IMG/VR virus record: IMGVR_UViG_3300034418_012856
Location: 1-64,000 of that record
Strand: one strand, 5' to 3'
DNA length: 64,000 nt
Source: a virus
The position numbers were made by a program, and so were the translations under genes. Numbering within the stretch: the first letter of the stretch is position 1; each line of letters begins with the position of its first letter. A model generated the notes under the pieces. The model worked only from the letters and a program-made list of their open reading frames with translations. It was not told where the DNA came from and did no database searches. Positions 14,064 through 31,259 of the stretch are shown one piece after another.

Positions 14064-14618
14064 ATGGCTGGCTTACCACATTATCAAAACTCAATAAACT
14101 CGGTAAACAAATTTGAGCCGGTTTATCTCAATCAGTTTGAGGTAAATGTGATTCCCCCAGCTGCAGTAGCTGGTGGTCCTGTTTTGCTTGAGCATGTTAT
14201 TTCAGTAGATGGTTTAGAGGTTGATAAGAATCCAAGTTTTGTTTCTCAGAAGTATAAATTCGCCAAAAGAAACTATGCTGGTGGTAAGCCAGATACTACT
14301 ACTCTTGATCTGGGGCTTAAATTTACAGTTAACCTGGATGATGCTAATTCCATGTATGTTTTTAAGACACTTAGACAGTGGACAGACCTTATTTATAATC
14401 CTTTGACTGGAGCTCAAGGTATTAAAGCTGATTATACTGGAACTATAGTAGTCTCTGTTTTCAATAAAAATGGAGATGTATTTAGAAGAATTACACTTAA
14501 GGATTGCTTCCCACTCAAAGCGATAGATCCAATGGAACTAGAATATGTAAACGGGAATACCCTTTATGAAATTAGCATGACTTGGGCGGTTGATTATTGG
14601 GACGATCTTTTCTTATAA
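14064..14618 (+). CDS. tail tube protein, paralog 1 (gp19-like)
   Basis: Follows sheath; EPVYLNQFEV, LRQWTDLIYNPLTG, KADYTG, LKDCFP, DYWD. Confidence 0.85.
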   Translation: MAGLPHYQNSINSVNKFEPVYLNQFEVNVIPPAAVAGGPVLLEHVISVDGLEVDKNPSFVSQKYKFAKRNYAGGKPDTTTLDLGLKFTVNLDDANSMYVFKTLRQWTDLIYNPLTGAQGIKADYTGTIVVSVFNKNGDVFRRITLKDCFPLKAIDPMELEYVNGNTLYEISMTWAVDYWDDLFL

Positions 14619-14633
14619 AATAAAAAAAAGTAG

Positions 14634-15212
14634 ATGGCAGGTTTACCACATTTTAATAATTCAAAGGCAGCGAGAAATAATTATGAGCCGGTTTTCTTAA
14701 ACCAGTTTGAGGTTATTATTACCCCGCCTAATGGTATTAATCTATCAAATACTACATTCAGAGGCGAGACAATATTAACTCAGCAGGTAAAGAGTATTTC
14801 AGCATTACAAGTTGATATACAACCCTCTGATGCTGTTACACAATATTACAAGTTTGCTGAAAGAAGATATGCTGGAGGCGAGCCATCAACATCGGATGTT
14901 CAGTTCACTATGGATTTTGAAGTGAATCTTGACGATAATAATTCGATGACACTTTATAAGATATTGAGACAATGGTCTGATCTTATTTACAACCCTCTTA
15001 CAGGAGCAATGGGTTTAAAGAGGGATTATGTTGGATCTATGGTAGTCTCGGTTTTTAATAAGCAAGGTGACGTTTTCAGAAGGATAACCTTAAATAATTG
15101 TTTCTTGGTTGAGCCAATTACACCGATGACATTGTCTTACGATACTGGTGATGCACTTTATACAATTTCCACTACTTGGAAGTCAGATTACTGGAACGAC
15201 CTGTTCTTGTAA
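14634..15212 (+). CDS. tail tube protein, paralog 2 (gp19-like)
   Basis: Shares MAGLPH, EPV.LNQFEV, LRQW.DLIYNPLTGA.G, GDVFRRITL and DYW.DLFL with the preceding gene. Confidence 0.85.
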   Translation: MAGLPHFNNSKAARNNYEPVFLNQFEVIITPPNGINLSNTTFRGETILTQQVKSISALQVDIQPSDAVTQYYKFAERRYAGGEPSTSDVQFTMDFEVNLDDNNSMTLYKILRQWSDLIYNPLTGAMGLKRDYVGSMVVSVFNKQGDVFRRITLNNCFLVEPITPMTLSYDTGDALYTISTTWKSDYWNDLFL

Positions 15213-23473: not shown

Positions 23474-23536
23474 TTTTTTCTAAAATTTTGACTTTAGTTG
23501 GAATATATAATGGAAAAGTTTCAATATCGCAGGTGT

Positions 23537-23544
23537 GATATATA
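23537..23544 (+). promoter_or_regulatory. putative late promoter GATATATA
   Basis: Upstream of ATG 23568; a second variant GAATATATA lies at 23501. Confidence 0.6.
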
Positions 23545-23567
23545 GAAAGCAAAAAAACACAAGTAGA

Positions 23568-26303
23568 ATGGACTTACTTAATCAATTAAAAACTCTTAGG
23601 GAAACAACCACTAACCCTGAAGTTAAATCTATTTGCGAATCTCATATTAATAAAATACAAAACGGGGAGAACGTAAATGAATCCGCAGTCCTTGAATCTG
23701 TTGATCAGGTTGTGAAGGAAAGCGAAGGCGAAAGCGCTGTGAATCCTATGGAGATGATCAGACAACAAGAAATTGAAAGATCTAAATCTGCAGCTCAGAG
23801 ATTAATGGAATCTTGGGGAGGCATTGGATCATCAACTTCAAGAAATTCCGGATCCTATGTAGATGCTGAAAAGAAAGAGATCGATAACGAAGTTAATAAC
23901 ATCTCCGAAAGCTTAAAAGAAGTTGCTGAGAAAGACCCAGCAGCAAAGGCTTTTGTTGACTCACAAACAGTAAATAACTTAGGAGTTTATGAGTCTATTC
24001 TTTCTCTTAAGGGCACTGGAATTTACGAGCACCCTAACGTTAAGATCCTTTGTGAAAAATATACACACCTACTGAAAAGCAATAACGTCCCTGAATATCT
24101 AGTTGCTGAATCTTTTGTACAGGAACTTCAGAACTTTAACTGGGACAATAAGATTAAGTCTGCAGTAGAATCTATTAGTGAAAAAGTCCAATCACACCTA
24201 CCTGAAATTGAGGTATCTAAAGCTCTTTACTCGATCGAGAAAAGCGCTGGTGCTGATTTCTACTCACCAGTAACTGAGTCTTTGAATAAGTGGTTAATTT
24301 CAGAGAACAAATCAGTTGCTCTACTTTCTAAGGAGCTATCAAGGTGGTCTTTTAACCCAACGGTTAGAAATCTTGTTAATTCACTTTCTTTGATGGAGTC
24401 ATCAGAAAGTAAATTAAGTATTCCAGTTAATAACGGAAATTCTTCAGTTAAGAAAGTTTACTCTCCGGTACATGTAAGTGGCGGTAAAACCGTGTTTACC
24501 ATTGGTAATAATGTCTTTGAAGGAAACTCTGAAGGAATTAAGAGGCTTAATAGAGCAGAATTTGAAGCTCTTCCAGCATCTTTTAGATCTTTATTAGAAT
24601 CTTTCTATTCTCCTATGGTTAAGATTAACGAAAATGGTCTTAGCTTCTATGTTGGAAACAGCAGCTTTAAGCTTGTTGAAGAAAACGATTCAGTTTCTAT
24701 CTACTCGAAAGAAACAAAGATCAACTTCAGTGACCTTAATCAACTTGCTAAGCAAGTAGCTTTGGAGATTTCTGGTAGCTTAGGAGTTAATGAAGCTAAA
24801 GCGGTTTCAGATCTTATTAATTTATATGAGAATTTCGAAAATATCGTTGAGTTGGATTTTGCTAAGAGATTGGAATCAAAGGTATTTGAAGGTGTATCTG
24901 TAAACCTTATTAAATGGAACTCAAACCTTTACCTTAACAGGATAAACGAGGGAATGAATGAGAATTCTCTATTTAAGGTTAACGGATCACAAGCTACCAA
25001 CATGGTTAAGGATTTGATGAAGTACGACATCTCTGAAGGATTAACAGAATTTTTGGATGGCGAGAACAGAATCAAGTCTATTATGCTTAACGATAGAAAG
25101 CAAATCATTGATAACATTTCTATTGTCGAGAATGAAATCAATAAGATTTCACATGCAATGGCTACAAACCCTCTTTACGAAAACTCAAAAGAAATGCACA
25201 GAGCCAAGCACATGCTTGAGCAAGAGCTTTCTTCATTGAGGAAAAAATGGGCGGCTGTTAACGAGGAGATCGAAAAGATTGAGTCAACTGCAACAGAGGT
25301 AAACGACTTAAACGAGGACGAGAAATTTACTGTAGGCGACTACGTGAAAGTAAAAGAGTCTGGTAATACTGGTAAGGTAATTTCAGTCGATAGCACTTCT
25401 GGATCTTATACAGTTCTTATGGACAACGGAAGAACTGGTGATTTCAGAATGGACGAGATCGTTGATATCGAAGAGGCATTAAAATCTGCTGGTGAAGAAA
25501 ACCAAGAAGCAGACGAGACTCAAGAAGAAATCAAGGAGCAAGAAATGGCAGTAGCTCCTGAAAAACAAACTGAATCTGCAAAAGATAAAACTCCTGCTGC
25601 TACACTTAAGGCTAATACTTCTGCAGCTCCTTCTGCTAAGGATCAAGAAGATGCTGGTAAAAAAGACATCGAAAAGGAAGATCATGCTAATTTAGAGGAA
25701 GCTCCAGAAGGTAGCGAGAAGGAAACCAAATATGACATAAAGTTAAAAGATTCTTTGGTTGACAAAATGGGATACAACGTGAATGAAAATTCTGAAGACG
25801 TTGAGTCTACTGAATCTGAAATGGCTGAGGCTCCTGCTGACGGTAACACTGAGTTATCCGAAAGAGACGTTGAAAACACGGATCAAAACCTAGCAGAAGC
25901 ACCAGGTGGAAGAGATCATGCAGATTACGATGTAAAAGCTGCTCATGCAGAGGAGAATAATCCTGACATGGTTAAAACAGACCCTGAAATGGCTTCAGCT
26001 CCTGGTGATGGCACAGATAAAGAAATGCATCACGAGGTTGGTAAAGAAATGGGATACAATCTTGATGAAGCCAACGACGTTGAAAAGACAGATCAACAAC
26101 TTGCAGTAGCACCAGGTGGTGAGCACAAAGCAGAATATGATGTTGAAGTTGCTAAAGCTGAAAAGGCAGTAGCGGATGTCATGAAGACAAACCAAGAATT
26201 GGCTGAAGCTCCTGCAGCAGGAACTGAAGCTGAAACTGATGTTGAGGTAAACCCAGAAATGGGATATAACATTGACGAAAGCGAAGAGTCAAAAAAAAAC
26301 TAA
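23568..26303 (+). CDS. large acidic prohead core / internal head protein with SH3-KOW-like domain and C-terminal repeats
   Basis: Many [LIV]xE sites; FTVGDYVKVKESGNTGKV; repeats (M/L)AxAPxG and MGYN(V/L/I)(N/D)E; ATG 23568 preferred because GTG 23535 overlaps the promoter motif. Confidence 0.55.
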   Translation: MDLLNQLKTLRETTTNPEVKSICESHINKIQNGENVNESAVLESVDQVVKESEGESAVNPMEMIRQQEIERSKSAAQRLMESWGGIGSSTSRNSGSYVDAEKKEIDNEVNNISESLKEVAEKDPAAKAFVDSQTVNNLGVYESILSLKGTGIYEHPNVKILCEKYTHLLKSNNVPEYLVAESFVQELQNFNWDNKIKSAVESISEKVQSHLPEIEVSKALYSIEKSAGADFYSPVTESLNKWLISENKSVALLSKELSRWSFNPTVRNLVNSLSLMESSESKLSIPVNNGNSSVKKVYSPVHVSGGKTVFTIGNNVFEGNSEGIKRLNRAEFEALPASFRSLLESFYSPMVKINENGLSFYVGNSSFKLVEENDSVSIYSKETKINFSDLNQLAKQVALEISGSLGVNEAKAVSDLINLYENFENIVELDFAKRLESKVFEGVSVNLIKWNSNLYLNRINEGMNENSLFKVNGSQATNMVKDLMKYDISEGLTEFLDGENRIKSIMLNDRKQIIDNISIVENEINKISHAMATNPLYENSKEMHRAKHMLEQELSSLRKKWAAVNEEIEKIESTATEVNDLNEDEKFTVGDYVKVKESGNTGKVISVDSTSGSYTVLMDNGRTGDFRMDEIVDIEEALKSAGEENQEADETQEEIKEQEMAVAPEKQTESAKDKTPAATLKANTSAAPSAKDQEDAGKKDIEKEDHANLEEAPEGSEKETKYDIKLKDSLVDKMGYNVNENSEDVESTESEMAEAPADGNTELSERDVENTDQNLAEAPGGRDHADYDVKAAHAEENNPDMVKTDPEMASAPGDGTDKEMHHEVGKEMGYNLDEANDVEKTDQQLAVAPGGEHKAEYDVEVAKAEKAVADVMKTNQELAEAPAAGTEAETDVEVNPEMGYNIDESEESKKN

Positions 26304-27381: not shown

Positions 27382-27983
27382 AACCTTTTGAAGAGCAAAT
27401 TAAGGACCTAAGAAAGGAATCACAGTCGATTTCTAGCATTTCTAAGGAATCGAATGATTTGTTTAAGAAAAAATATGGACCGAATGGTTCTGGGGGAAGA
27501 CTAGAATTCAATGGAGATTTCATACCAGGTAAATTCTATACCTGCGAATATAAAACGAAAACCAAGATTTCTGATAAAGTTCCCTTTATTGATAGGGAGC
27601 CCGTTTTCATCTTTTTGAAAAAAGAGAAGTTCCAATCTGGATCTATAGCGGTATCTGTAGATCTTGGTGTCATCCCTCCTGATTATAGGGGTAATATTAT
27701 GGTTAAGTTGTGGAACCAGTATTATAATATATTTAAGGATAATGAGTCCTTACCATATACTTCCCAAATTCCCATACAAGGGATCAGTAGGGCATTTGAT
27801 GCTTTATTAAACGGTACTGGGTGGAAAACTTCTCTTACCGGATTTAAGCTCGATTTTATGAATAATATAAAGGTTGTGGACTATACTGATCTTGTCAGGA
27901 TCCCATATCTTTCTGATTTTATGATAGAGGGACAATCCATTAATGGGATATATAGTGATTATAGATCGAAATTAAATCTCTAA
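27378..27983 (+). CDS. DNA end protector-like protein (T4 gp2-like)
   Basis: PGKFYTCEY...PFIDREPVFI, DLGVIPP..R; adjacent to gp4. Confidence 0.55.
   Translation: MKPFEEQIKDLRKESQSISSISKESNDLFKKKYGPNGSGGRLEFNGDFIPGKFYTCEYKTKTKISDKVPFIDREPVFIFLKKEKFQSGSIAVSVDLGVIPPDYRGNIMVKLWNQYYNIFKDNESLPYTSQIPIQGISRAFDALLNGTGWKTSLTGFKLDFMNNIKVVDYTDLVRIPYLSDFMIEGQSINGIYSDYRSKLNL
27947..27954 (+). promoter_or_regulatory. putative late promoter GATATATA (within the 3' end of the gp2-like gene)
   Basis: About 65 nt upstream of the first portal gene. Confidence 0.5.
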
Positions 27984-28016
27984 GATAAAGTACAAAAGAC
28001 AGATCTTATTTTATAA

Positions 28017-29645
28017 ATGGCCGGATTTAACGAAACACCAGAAGGGAACCCGATATTCCAAAGGATTAGAGAGTCTGTAAAGTCTCTCAGCAATTTTGGT
28101 ATGAGGTATGGTGATATGGTCATTAAAAATTCACAGGCCATTGGATCGATAGAAGCTGATTTTATGAAAAAGCAATCTATCGATGATGAGAGCTTGCTTT
28201 ATTCCCTCGGTAGACAAGACACGACCACAAGACAATTTATCAGCTACTATGATAAGGATTACGCAGGAAAGAGAGATTATCTTAGGAAGTTTGCTCTGAA
28301 TCCTGAGATAGAGTACATCTTGGATACTGTCTGTGACGAAGCGATAACTTTTGATTCATACAACTTCTTTGCATATCCAGCATTTTTAAATCTTACCGAT
28401 GTAAAGGATAAGATAAAAAACCGTCTGGACGAGAATTATAAGAATTTGTATGACATGTTCGGCTTCGGCGATGATATCAGCGGGTGGCAATACTTTAGAC
28501 AGCTAATGGTCGATGGCTTTCTTGCCTTTGAAATAGTTTATGATGACAAAGGTAAGAAGATTATTGGATTTAAGGAATTAGATGCAACTACTCTAATGCC
28601 ATCTGTTGAAAAGCAGCCTGATGGTACTTATTTGAGTGTTTGGTATCAATACCCAAAGGATATCAATAAGAGGAGGATGCTATATGACTCCCAGGTGATT
28701 TACATATCATTTGCTAAGGGAAACACAGTTTCTAGGATTAGCTATGTCGAAAGACTTATAAGGCCCTACAACATTCTTAGGATAATCGAGTACACTAGGG
28801 TAATATGGTCGGTTATGAACGCATCGTTCAGAATGAAAATGACTGTACCGATTGGATCGAGATCTCCACAGAAGTCTATGCAAACCTTGGGTGAGCTTAT
28901 GAGTATCTATAAGGAAGATATTAGGTTCAATGATGAGAGTGGGGAGTTAACAGTAGATGGCAGACCTAAGATACAGTTTTATAAGAATTATCTAATGCCT
29001 TCTGGTGTTAATGGAACACCAACGATAGAACCTATTAATAATGCTGGCCCAAACTTAAACGATCCCCAGCCTCTTGCTTATTTCTACGATAAGCTAGTTC
29101 AGGAATCTAAAATTCCTTTTTCTAGGTTCCAAGGTCCTGATGGTGGATCTATAGGAAACTATTCGAATGGTGCAGAAGGATTGGATAAAGAGGAAATAAG
29201 GTTTGGTAAGTTTATTAGTAGGCTTAGATCTATCTTCCAGGATCTTTTGGTTAAGCCACTTTGGATTCAAATGTGTAAGGATTTTCCGGAGTTGGAGAAG
29301 GATTACTTATTTAAGAGTCAACTGGGGTTGGAATATGTTTCTGATAATCCATTCAGGGTTAATCAAGAGATAGAAACCATGCTTAAAAAGAAAGAGCAAA
29401 TTGATGGTATGTATGCTCTTACCGATGATAGCGGTGAGCCTTTCTTTTCATTGGCTTATCTAATTGAGTCTCATTTGGGAATGACTGAAGATGATATAAA
29501 GGCAAATAAGGAAGCTATCAAGAAAAGGAAAGAGGAGGAAAAAAAGAAAGCTGACGAAGAGGCTAAATCTTCGGAGGAAGAACCCGCAGAGGAAGCTCCA
29601 GAAGAATCTCCGGAGGAAACCCCGGAAGAACCCCCACAAGAATAA
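28017..29645 (+). CDS. gp20: portal protein, paralog 1
   Basis: PEIEYILDTVCDEAI, FRQLMVDG, SYVERLIRPYNILRIIE, YKNYLMP, SKIPFSRF, EEIRFGKFISRLR. Confidence 0.88.
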   Translation: MAGFNETPEGNPIFQRIRESVKSLSNFGMRYGDMVIKNSQAIGSIEADFMKKQSIDDESLLYSLGRQDTTTRQFISYYDKDYAGKRDYLRKFALNPEIEYILDTVCDEAITFDSYNFFAYPAFLNLTDVKDKIKNRLDENYKNLYDMFGFGDDISGWQYFRQLMVDGFLAFEIVYDDKGKKIIGFKELDATTLMPSVEKQPDGTYLSVWYQYPKDINKRRMLYDSQVIYISFAKGNTVSRISYVERLIRPYNILRIIEYTRVIWSVMNASFRMKMTVPIGSRSPQKSMQTLGELMSIYKEDIRFNDESGELTVDGRPKIQFYKNYLMPSGVNGTPTIEPINNAGPNLNDPQPLAYFYDKLVQESKIPFSRFQGPDGGSIGNYSNGAEGLDKEEIRFGKFISRLRSIFQDLLVKPLWIQMCKDFPELEKDYLFKSQLGLEYVSDNPFRVNQEIETMLKKKEQIDGMYALTDDSGEPFFSLAYLIESHLGMTEDDIKANKEAIKKRKEEEKKKADEEAKSSEEEPAEEAPEESPEETPEEPPQE

Positions 29646-29654
29646 TAATATAGA

Positions 29655-31259
29655 ATGGCAGGTTTTTTAGATTATGTAGCAGAAAGATCCTTCTTGGGTA
29701 ACCTGTATAAGAATTTATCCAAGGTTGGAAGGTTTGGAATGGAATACGAAGATATGGTAATTCGTAATTCCCAAGCTGTTGGTGCTACTGAATCTAACTT
29801 TTTCAACGAACAGGGAAGTGGATTTACTGAAAACAACGCATTTTATTGGACCCTTGGATATCAAGATACGAAGGTTAGAAAATATATTGCCTACTTCGAC
29901 AAGGACTACATGGGTAAAAGAGACTTCCTTAGGAAATTCTCTTTGAATGGCGAAATTGATTTTATCCTGGATACACTTACTGATGATGCTATCAATTACG
30001 ATGACAAAAATTTCTTTAGTTATCCGTCTTTAGCTAACATTGATCTAAAGCCTAATGTGCTTGATAAGGTAAACGAGACATATCAGAATTTGTATATGCT
30101 GTTTGGCTTTCAGCAAAGCATATTAGCTTGGCAATATTTTAAGCAGTTTTTGATTGATGGGTTTTTGGCTTTTGAGATTGTTTATTCTACTGATGGCAAG
30201 AAAATAGTTGGATTTAAAGAATTAGATCCAACCTCCCTTCAACCCGCTACAGAACAGCAGCCAAATGGTGAATTCCAACAGATTTGGATACAATACCCAG
30301 AGGATAATAAAATGACAAGGAAGCTCAGAAGTGAGCAGATCATTTATCTTTCGTATGCTAAAGGAAATACAATTTCTAGGGTAAGCTATGTGGAGAGACT
30401 TATAAGGTCTTATAACATTCTAAGAATCATGGAAAACACCAGGGTTATTTGGAATGTGATGAATGCTTCTTACAGACTTAAGTTTGTAATCCCTGTTGGT
30501 TCACAGTCTCAGCAAAAAGCGATGCAAACCCTTGGACAGCTAATGTCTATCTATAAAGAGGAAATGGAAATTAATGATTCCTCGGGTGAACTAACAGTAA
30601 ACGGTAGACCTAAGGTTCAGTTTTATAAGAATTATCTTTTCCCTGAGAAAGATGGACAATCCCCACAGATTGAAACCCTTGATCCCAATGGACCAGATTT
30701 CAATGTTATGGATAATGTTATTTACTTCTATAACAAGCTTAAACTGGATTCGAAAATACCTTATGCAAGGTTTGCTTTCCGAAATGGTACCCCGGCTAAC
30801 TATCAAATAAGTATAGATCAGCTAGAAAGGGATGAAATTAGGTTTGAGAAATTCTTAACAAGACTAAGATCGATCTTCCAAGAAATATTGGTCAAACCTC
30901 TTTACATACAAATGTGTTTGGACTTCCCAGAATTAGCTAAGGATAGATCATTCAAAGCAAATCTGGGCCTAAGTTATGTAAGAGAAAACCTTTTCGAGGA
31001 GTTTATTCAATTGCAAAACTATACAAAACGCACCCAGTTTATAAATGACCTTGGTGAAATGAAGCAAAAGATTGGCGAGGAAGAGGAATCTTATTTTGAC
31101 AAAGAATTCCTGATTAAAAGGTATCTCGGTTTAACTATGGACGAATATAAGAAGAACGAGAAATATAAGGAAGCTGAAGCTAAGCTTGCTGAGGAAAAAG
31201 CTAAGGAAGCCGGATCTGAGGGCGGAGAGGAAGGCGGAGGCGAGTCATTCACCCTATAA
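29655..31259 (+). CDS. gp20: portal protein, paralog 2
   Basis: Same motifs: EIDFILD, FKQFLIDG, SYVERLIRSYNILRIME, YKNYLFP, SKIPYARF, DEIRFEKFLTRLR. Confidence 0.88.
   Translation: MAGFLDYVAERSFLGNLYKNLSKVGRFGMEYEDMVIRNSQAVGATESNFFNEQGSGFTENNAFYWTLGYQDTKVRKYIAYFDKDYMGKRDFLRKFSLNGEIDFILDTLTDDAINYDDKNFFSYPSLANIDLKPNVLDKVNETYQNLYMLFGFQQSILAWQYFKQFLIDGFLAFEIVYSTDGKKIVGFKELDPTSLQPATEQQPNGEFQQIWIQYPEDNKMTRKLRSEQIIYLSYAKGNTISRVSYVERLIRSYNILRIMENTRVIWNVMNASYRLKFVIPVGSQSQQKAMQTLGQLMSIYKEEMEINDSSGELTVNGRPKVQFYKNYLFPEKDGQSPQIETLDPNGPDFNVMDNVIYFYNKLKLDSKIPYARFAFRNGTPANYQISIDQLERDEIRFEKFLTRLRSIFQEILVKPLYIQMCLDFPELAKDRSFKANLGLSYVRENLFEEFIQLQNYTKRTQFINDLGEMKQKIGEEEESYFDKEFLIKRYLGLTMDEYKKNEKYKEAEAKLAEEKAKEAGSEGGEEGGGESFTL

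Follow-up and report, generated by a model that had tools for sequence, protein, structure and literature searches.

Two complete genes for portal proteins of the T4 gp20 family stand in tandem in a stretch of viral DNA of 64,000 nucleotides (nt), which covers positions 1 to 64,000 of the IMG/VR record IMGVR_UViG_3300034418_012856 and is hereafter called the window. The upstream gene, A, occupies positions 28017..29645 and the downstream gene, B, positions 29655..31259, both on the plus strand. The portal nucleates the head of the virion, docks the packaging motor, senses the full head and gates DNA. To our knowledge, T4 and all characterised tailed phages build it from one protein as a homododecamer, and in herpesviruses it is likewise regarded as the product of a single gene. 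The data obtained for the window and its relatives are best accommodated, with a probability that we estimate at about one half, by co-assembly of A and B into one dodecameric portal ring of mixed composition at the only portal vertex.

Both open reading frames were found exactly where the original prediction had placed them, with lengths of 542 (A) and 534 (B) amino acids (aa) and a MAGF start in each. The two proteins are 50% identical and 71% similar across 525 residues (E = 0). Against the profile of the gp20 family, PF07230 (Portal_T4, curated cut-off 22.9 bits), A scored 200.5 bits (E 5e-59, profile positions 7-432 of 433) and B 206.2 bits (E 1e-60, positions 9-432 of 433), and both matched PHROG 213 (portal) with E-values of 1e-57 and 2e-57, respectively. 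They are the only PF07230 matches in the whole IMG/VR record, and the rule of one portal gene per genome, which holds for T4-type portals, is broken here as well as in each of the 160 related loci described below. The record is 83.8 kb long at an estimated completeness of 30%, which points to a jumbo phage, aquatic and uncultured.

The spacer between the two genes (29646..29654, plus strand), read directly, consists of 9 nt, a second in-frame TAA followed by TATAGA, so that the junction from the stop of A to the start of B reads TAA TAA TAT AGA ATG and both genes share one frame in the window, which is not the case in most relatives. Such a spacer is too short to hold a promoter. Programmed readthrough from A into B, or a fusion of the two, was considered and is ruled out by the tandem TAA stops and by the gap in the relatives, which varies from 2 to 23 nt among 68 related loci with any frame and no conserved one. 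The protein collection contains more than 1,600 portal homologues, and also one long distant relative of gp20, P0267 (1059 aa), in which an intein (PF14890) splits the halves of PF07230; it is a portal with an intein and not an A-B fusion.

Relatives of A were found in IMG/VR on 207 contigs, of which 80 were examined as the subclade of the window, while a sister subclade, reached via the representative P0121, comprised 184 contigs, again with 80 examined. In all 80 loci of the window subclade the A-like gene is directly followed by the B-like one wherever the contig extends far enough, and the orthologues are 72-100% identical for A and 67-100% for B, against about 50% between A and B. The sister subclade keeps the tandem pair, its gene 1 being 54-58% identical to A and its gene 2 51-58% identical to B. 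The order A then B was thus registered in 160 of 160 loci of the two-portal clade, coming from many samples, and none of them lacks either copy; in about 135 both genes are complete and intact, and about 20 are cut at a contig end. Since orthologues have diverged down to 55% identity without loss of either copy, neither of them is redundant. In the next outgroups (relatives of P0122 and P0123; L170-L182) there is one portal gene, with about 5 kb of flanking sequence on each side, and this portal is approximately 45% identical to both A and B. One portal is present also in LR756500, and LR756501 has one full-length portal with an additional portal fragment of 58 positions. In the collection of isolate and GenBank phages no close record was found; the best matches there were LR756500 (44.5%), other LR7565xx records and LR745206 (34-37%), Lak phages of Prevotella (about 36%) and other phages of Bacteroidota.

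In the full-length tree the A genes of the two subclades (A1+A2) are joined with a support of 99 and the B genes (B1+B2) with 98, and all four groups are separated from the single-copy outgroups with a support of 98. An earlier tree of 86 rows gave the same picture, with mirrored topologies inside A and B, and the trees built on alignment positions 1-240 and 342-500 each recovered the same orthology. Only the short stem/clip block did not: there within-genome paralogues are as similar as orthologues from different subclades, and the 100-column tree was unresolved, with a non-significant p = 0.44 in the approximately unbiased test applied to gene conversion. As judged from these trees, A and B are shown to be reciprocally monophyletic, in agreement with one ancient tandem duplication that predates the split of the two deep subclades. 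The question posed with the original prediction, whether both portal clades persist in relatives, is therefore answered positively, as close relatives are never single-copy and only distant outgroups are.

Individual contigs of the clade deserve separate mention. In a 24-kb contig the B-like portal contains a frameshift (L051:8243-8282), which makes it the sole disrupted B among about 160 loci. Two unrelated contigs have a single in-frame TAG in the A-like portal (L081:6601-6603 and L130:2523-2525), the genes otherwise ending nearly always with TAA, and one of these two TAG codons sits in the inner clip loop. They could reflect a sequencing error, a true nonsense mutation or amber suppression. 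Recoding of TAG was considered and is unsupported: the window has no tRNA genes, and TAG terminates 5 of 78 long frames in its own record.

Selective constraint was estimated from the ratio of nonsynonymous to synonymous substitution rates (dN/dS), calculated according to Nei and Gojobori for 51 non-identical genome pairs and grouped in bins of dS. In every bin the ratio was very low, amounting to 0.014-0.05 for A and 0.010-0.035 for B, and dN of A followed dN of B with r = 0.96 and a slope of 1.07. Relaxed selection on one copy, which the original prediction had proposed to look for, was not observed in either of them; purifying selection is strong and equal for A and B. Diversifying selection of the kind expected from immune evasion is ruled out by the same values (dN/dS about 0.02). 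In a set of 94 non-redundant A/B pairs from both subclades, supplemented by 56 single-copy outgroup proteins, 42% of columns are conserved in A and 39% in B, each copy has two derived states relative to the outgroup, and the per-site entropy profiles of A and B correlate with a Spearman coefficient of 0.59. Both copies retain every domain in undegraded form. The strongest conservation in both falls on the stem and the clip, as would be expected if A and B share the same neighbours, the terminase and the neck. Taken together, a single duplication, the presence of both copies in every locus with enough sequence and equally strong purifying selection strongly support the idea of an old, maintained duplication from which this study started.

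AlphaFold2 models of A and B, generated from 66-row alignments, were of moderate confidence, with a mean predicted local distance difference test score of 73.5 each and predicted template modelling scores of 0.65-0.67. Helices and strands follow in the same succession in both models, and the tunnel loop and both termini are disordered. A Foldseek search against the PDB returned T4 gp20 (9MKB, 6UZC, 9LU6/9LU7, 3JA7) as the top matches of both models, with template modelling scores of 0.50-0.70 and best E-values of 1e-18 for A and 1e-19 for B. Clip, stem, wing, tunnel loop and crown are present in the order typical of portals. The clip-tip motif P-x-G-S/T-x-S-x-Q-K is kept in A and B of both subclades, and so are the anchors of the tunnel loop, K-I-P-[FY]-x-R-F ... 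L-[DE]-[KR]-[ED]-E. The early statement that both proteins keep all recognisable gp20 motifs holds, therefore, in substance, as the two share a conserved clip tip, conserved stem helices and tunnel-loop anchors, and one predicted order of secondary-structure elements. Based on these models, A and B are predicted to be complete portal subunits of the T4 gp20 type.

Similarity between the two copies is distributed along the proteins very unevenly. With domain boundaries taken from T4 gp20 (PMC4493910), the identity of A and B in the window is 40% in the N-terminus, 56% in wing 1, 83% in stem 1, 59% in the clip, 40% in stem 2, 35% in the tunnel loop, 71% in wing 2 and 28% in the crown. Residue sets of A and B never overlap in 42 of 520 columns, and 22 of these disjoint columns belong to three loops spanning together only 52 columns (Fisher p = 1e-13). 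The three enriched elements are the inner clip loop (T4 residues 336-343), the channel loop with the start of stem 2 (349-363) and the tunnel loop (374-399), which are the only contacts of gp20 subunits with DNA in the channel (PMC4493910). If the count is restricted to positions at which A and B have different fixed residues in both subclades, 5 of 10 are in the same three loops (binomial p = 0.002).

The channel-lining segment of A, with all three elements, is encoded at 28995..29192 of the plus strand (aa 327-392) and maps to T4 residues 336-399, on which the HMMER alignment and the secondary structure of the model agree; the corresponding segment of B, with its inner clip loop, channel loop and tunnel loop, is at 30639..30833 of the same strand (aa 329-393). 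The inner clip loop of A, S-G-V-N-G-T, is uncharged, and that of B in the window subclade, E-K-D-G-Q-S, is charged and retains an outgroup-like Gly. Thus, as far as aligned residues can tell, the divergence of A and B is shown to be focused on the channel lining and the tails. In wing 1 two adjacent strict sites alter the charge (D176 and K178 in A versus S178 and D180 in B), and they represent a candidate hetero-specific contact.

The C-terminal tails add a second asymmetry. The tail of A is acidic and rich in proline and has no hydrophobic end motif; the tail of B is rich in Gly and Glu and terminates in the hydrophobic F-T-L (31248..31256, plus strand). The end motif is confined to B in 48 of 48 non-redundant pairs of the window subclade, while in the sister subclade an F-[KT]-L end is found on A only (43 of 46 pairs, the three exceptions being borderline). 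Most single-copy outgroups, as well as T4 gp20 itself (...QEQEDF), have a hydrophobic or aromatic end after an acidic tail. A swap of the whole C-terminal domain was examined as a cause of this pattern and is ruled out, since crown positions 443-502 and the tree of positions 342-500 show normal orthology. The pattern arose, then, either by reciprocal loss or by a small swap limited to the tail. In locus L166 both paralogues end with an identical ...AEAGGDMGTI (the last ~10 codons), which indicates that local exchange between low-complexity tails can occur. As the motif is found on exactly one copy, and which copy bears it differs by subclade, either copy can supply its function. In the T4 papers PMC4493910 and PMC12929629 no role for the gp20 C-terminus was found. 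Judging by its distribution among the compared proteins, the reciprocal motif would be easier to understand in a structure common to A and B than in two structures whose roles were fixed separately.

The portal is not the only duplicated part of the DNA path. Two tail-tube genes, both matching PHROG 45 (tail tube), are located on the plus strand at 14064..14618 (184 aa) and 14634..15212 (192 aa); they are tandem and 56% identical, and each begins with MAGLPH. Two tandem tube genes were present in all five two-portal genomes analysed (long contigs of both subclades), versus one in all five single-portal outgroups. In an all-against-all comparison the portal and tube pairs were the only paralogue pairs in the record of the window, and in a relative of 230 kb that is 85% complete (G005) they are the only full-length structural pairs; an outgroup genome (G003) has neither. 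The large terminase, the sheath, the prohead protease and the major capsid protein are each encoded once in the window, and these single genes, together with the absence of structural paralogues other than the tube, argue for one head type and hence for one portal vertex available to two portals. The deep order of the tube tree (191 columns), including the age of its duplication relative to the subclade split, was unresolved, and the joint duplication of tube and portal is one co-occurrence on one long branch, which is suggestive only. In the T4 virion the end of the genome passes from the portal crown into the top of the gp19 tube (PMC12929629), and duplication of the tube along with the portal suggests that the entire DNA channel has been affected by the change.

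On these grounds the comparison of genes favours both proteins acting in one structure. That A and B belong to the same ring, as well as their ratio and arrangement in it, we infer; an alternating 6+6 ring would be the simplest arrangement of a mixed portal. Both genes would then encode working portal subunits, indispensable since one ancient tandem duplication. The stem, the wing core and the clip tip, which serve ring building and the docking of the terminase and the neck, would stay alike, while the three DNA-channel loops would have become two fixed types and the acidic tail with its hydrophobic end would be contributed by one of the two subunits only. In an A6B6 portal the two kinds of DNA-contacting loops would be placed in six-fold rather than twelve-fold order. 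One may go further and suppose that the whole DNA conduit has been rebuilt from paired paralogues, with a strictly alternating A6B6 portal and a two-protein tube that arose on the same branch; this bolder proposal we put forward only tentatively, the odds being against it.

Several points weigh against a mixed ring. Strictly paralogue-specific sites are only ten in number, and the count of 42 disjoint columns is inflated, since the three loops are among the faster-evolving parts of the protein (the strict ten-site test is unaffected by this). One disrupting change, a stop or a frameshift in one copy, is carried by 3 of the approximately 160 loci. A fused A-B protein, for which relatives of 950-2710 aa with E ≤ 1e-10 were inspected in the searched collection, was not found among them, which is a weak objection. 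The nearest portals of isolates are at most 31% identical, and the clade has no cultured member. Finally, retention of both copies, their equal constraint and their co-transcription are equally expected from two separate essential homododecameric rings, one of them the true portal and the other a portal-like ring placed elsewhere, for instance stacked within the head to anchor internal proteins or DNA, or occupying a second special vertex. Such rings would explain the universal retention and the two distinct conserved sets of channel loops, and jumbo phages often have extra internal head structures. We nevertheless regard this solution as unlikely. Roles fixed at the duplication are hard to reconcile with an end motif that stands on B in one subclade and on A in the other. 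The clip tip that in T4 docks the terminase and the neck is retained by both copies, and the partner genes are not duplicated, the terminase, the capsid and the protease being encoded once each. We also know of no tailed phage with a second portal-like ring.

If the two portals were interchangeable, so that a virion could contain a ring of A, a ring of B or an unordered mixture, the pair might hedge against portal-sensing hosts or defences, or be suited to differing conditions. Both proteins do look fully competent and either copy can bear the C-terminal motif, but loss of a copy would then be expected in some lineages, and 0 of 160 loci lack one in spite of the deep divergence of orthologues. 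As the channel-loop differences between A and B are, moreover, conserved rather than drifting, and diversifying selection is not seen, interchangeability appears improbable. Little credence can be given also to the idea that one copy is a decoy or an assembly factor absent from the virion, which might, for instance, nucleate or chaperone the other copy or the scaffold. Portal assembly in T4 requires helper functions, and one copy here is devoid of the end motif. It is also known that gp20 initiates T4 head assembly together with gp22 (PMC4493910). Neither copy, however, shows relaxed or asymmetric evolution, both retain elements of the channel, the clip and the crown for which a non-portal role would have no use, and the copy without the motif is not the same in the two subclades. 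An artefact of assembly or annotation, collapsed strains or a chimeric contig, might be suspected in a metagenomic fragment of such low estimated completeness, but its probability is negligible: the A-then-B order recurs independently in 160 contigs, which were obtained in many studies from many samples, the pair is present in 14 DNA runs containing at least half of the sampled words of the window, and the two proteins are only 50% identical and reciprocally monophyletic. Co-assembly of A and B in one ring remains, therefore, the reading that we prefer.

Both portal genes are probably read from one start. A late-promoter-like motif, GATATATA, is located on the plus strand at 27947..27954, 70 nt upstream of A, and is the likely start of an A-B transcript. 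It was registered 16 times in the window versus 3.6 expected, always on the plus strand and mostly 30-70 nt upstream of structural genes (sites at 5442, 10703, 27947 and 44524 among them), which makes it a candidate late promoter for the gp55-like sigma. Within the two portal genes (28017-31259) the motif does not occur, and this single upstream site, the absence of internal ones and the 2-23-nt gap make co-transcription of A and B likely. Four metatranscriptome runs gave contigs over parts of both portal genes at 99% identity or more, one of which (29514-29754) spans the A/B junction; contigs from RNA libraries neither prove transcription nor rank genes, so that this part of the argument is weak and the uncovered stretches (such as 32.1-33.2 kb in three runs) carry no weight. 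Ahead of the portal genes (27990-28016 and 29640-29654) there are AT-rich leaders only, and no Shine-Dalgarno-like sequence was seen in front of either.

Upstream of the portal pair the window encodes homologues of gp55 (late sigma), gp4 (head completion) and gp2 (DNA end protector), and downstream a PfkB-type kinase and a DNA ligase. An acidic, repeat-rich open reading frame of 922 aa (23535-26303) lies shortly before the late sigma gene. In each of the four runs the cover by RNA-library contigs was most continuous here, with a single contig reaching up to 2.6 kb; the frame gave a weak SH3-like MSSS match and no PHROG match.

Hundreds of contigs represent the clade, and the samples that gave them were freshwater, estuarine, marine and salt-marsh ones; the phage of the window itself occurs at freshwater sites. 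The cultured phages closest to it have hosts among Bacteroidota, and a Chitinophagia metagenome-assembled genome is given as the origin of one homologue. Together with the missing Shine-Dalgarno sequences, these observations point to a host from Bacteroidota.

The gp20 family is well known, and it is the conserved two-gene state that is new. A full-text search of the literature, which left most subscription journals outside its scope, returned no report of duplicated or heteromeric portal genes, and we know of no phage in which alternating positions of the portal ring are encoded by two genes. If the mixed ring is real, this would be the first lineage of tailed viruses with a genetically encoded hetero-oligomeric portal. 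A widespread clade that has needed two portals since an ancient duplication would be a natural experiment in breaking the 12-fold symmetry of the portal, which opens to test the roles of the channel loops and of the C-terminal tail, the number of copies of each subunit needed among the twelve, and the symmetry mismatches between head, neck and tail. Surveys that count genes or use markers on the assumption of a single portal in each genome will obtain wrong numbers for this clade.

Among described phages, the moraphages (PMC12619734, published in 2025) are aquatic, have genomes of 200-307 kb and predicted Bacteroidota hosts, and count the portal and the gp19 tube among their core genes. They share with the clade studied here the habitats (freshwater, estuary, salt marsh), the size range and the relatedness to Lak and T4 phages, and on the basis of these features may be the same or a neighbouring lineage. 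In their description (PMC12619734) the terms "duplicat", "paralog" and "two copies" occur 0 times each, and duplicated portal or tube genes are not mentioned. Nearest by sequence, with 34-48% identity to A and B, are the single-portal huge phages LR756500 (462 kb), LR756501-4 and LR745206 (635-735 kb), the Lak phages and the L170-L182 contigs. These have the MAGF start of the portal and T4-like jumbo or huge genomes in common with the two-portal clade, but differ from it in having one full-length portal gene and one tail-tube gene each.

Both open reading frames match T4 gp20 (PF07230; 3JA7, 6UZC, 9MKB, 9LU6/9LU7) from end to end, with the same domain order and the conserved clip tip, and the pair stands among T4-like morphogenesis genes, with gp2, gp4 and gp55 homologues upstream. 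The acidic tail with a hydrophobic end is also shared, though here it is found on B only. What differs is the presence of two genes instead of one, with A and B only 16-21% identical to gp20 in structural alignments, and the existence of channel loops of two fixed types and of an end motif restricted to one copy. For a specialised position occupied by a paralogue within one structure T4 offers a precedent in logic, since gp24, a paralogue of gp23, takes a special position in the same shell. Its neck, in which a gp13 dodecamer sits on a gp14 hexamer and gp20 and gp13 are present as 12:12 (PMC12929587, PMC12929629), gives a precedent for a step from twelve to six within the connector, but this step lies below the portal, and the T4 portal consists of 12 identical subunits. 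The T4 neck may serve, therefore, as an analogy for alternating positions in the connector and not as their demonstration for the portal.

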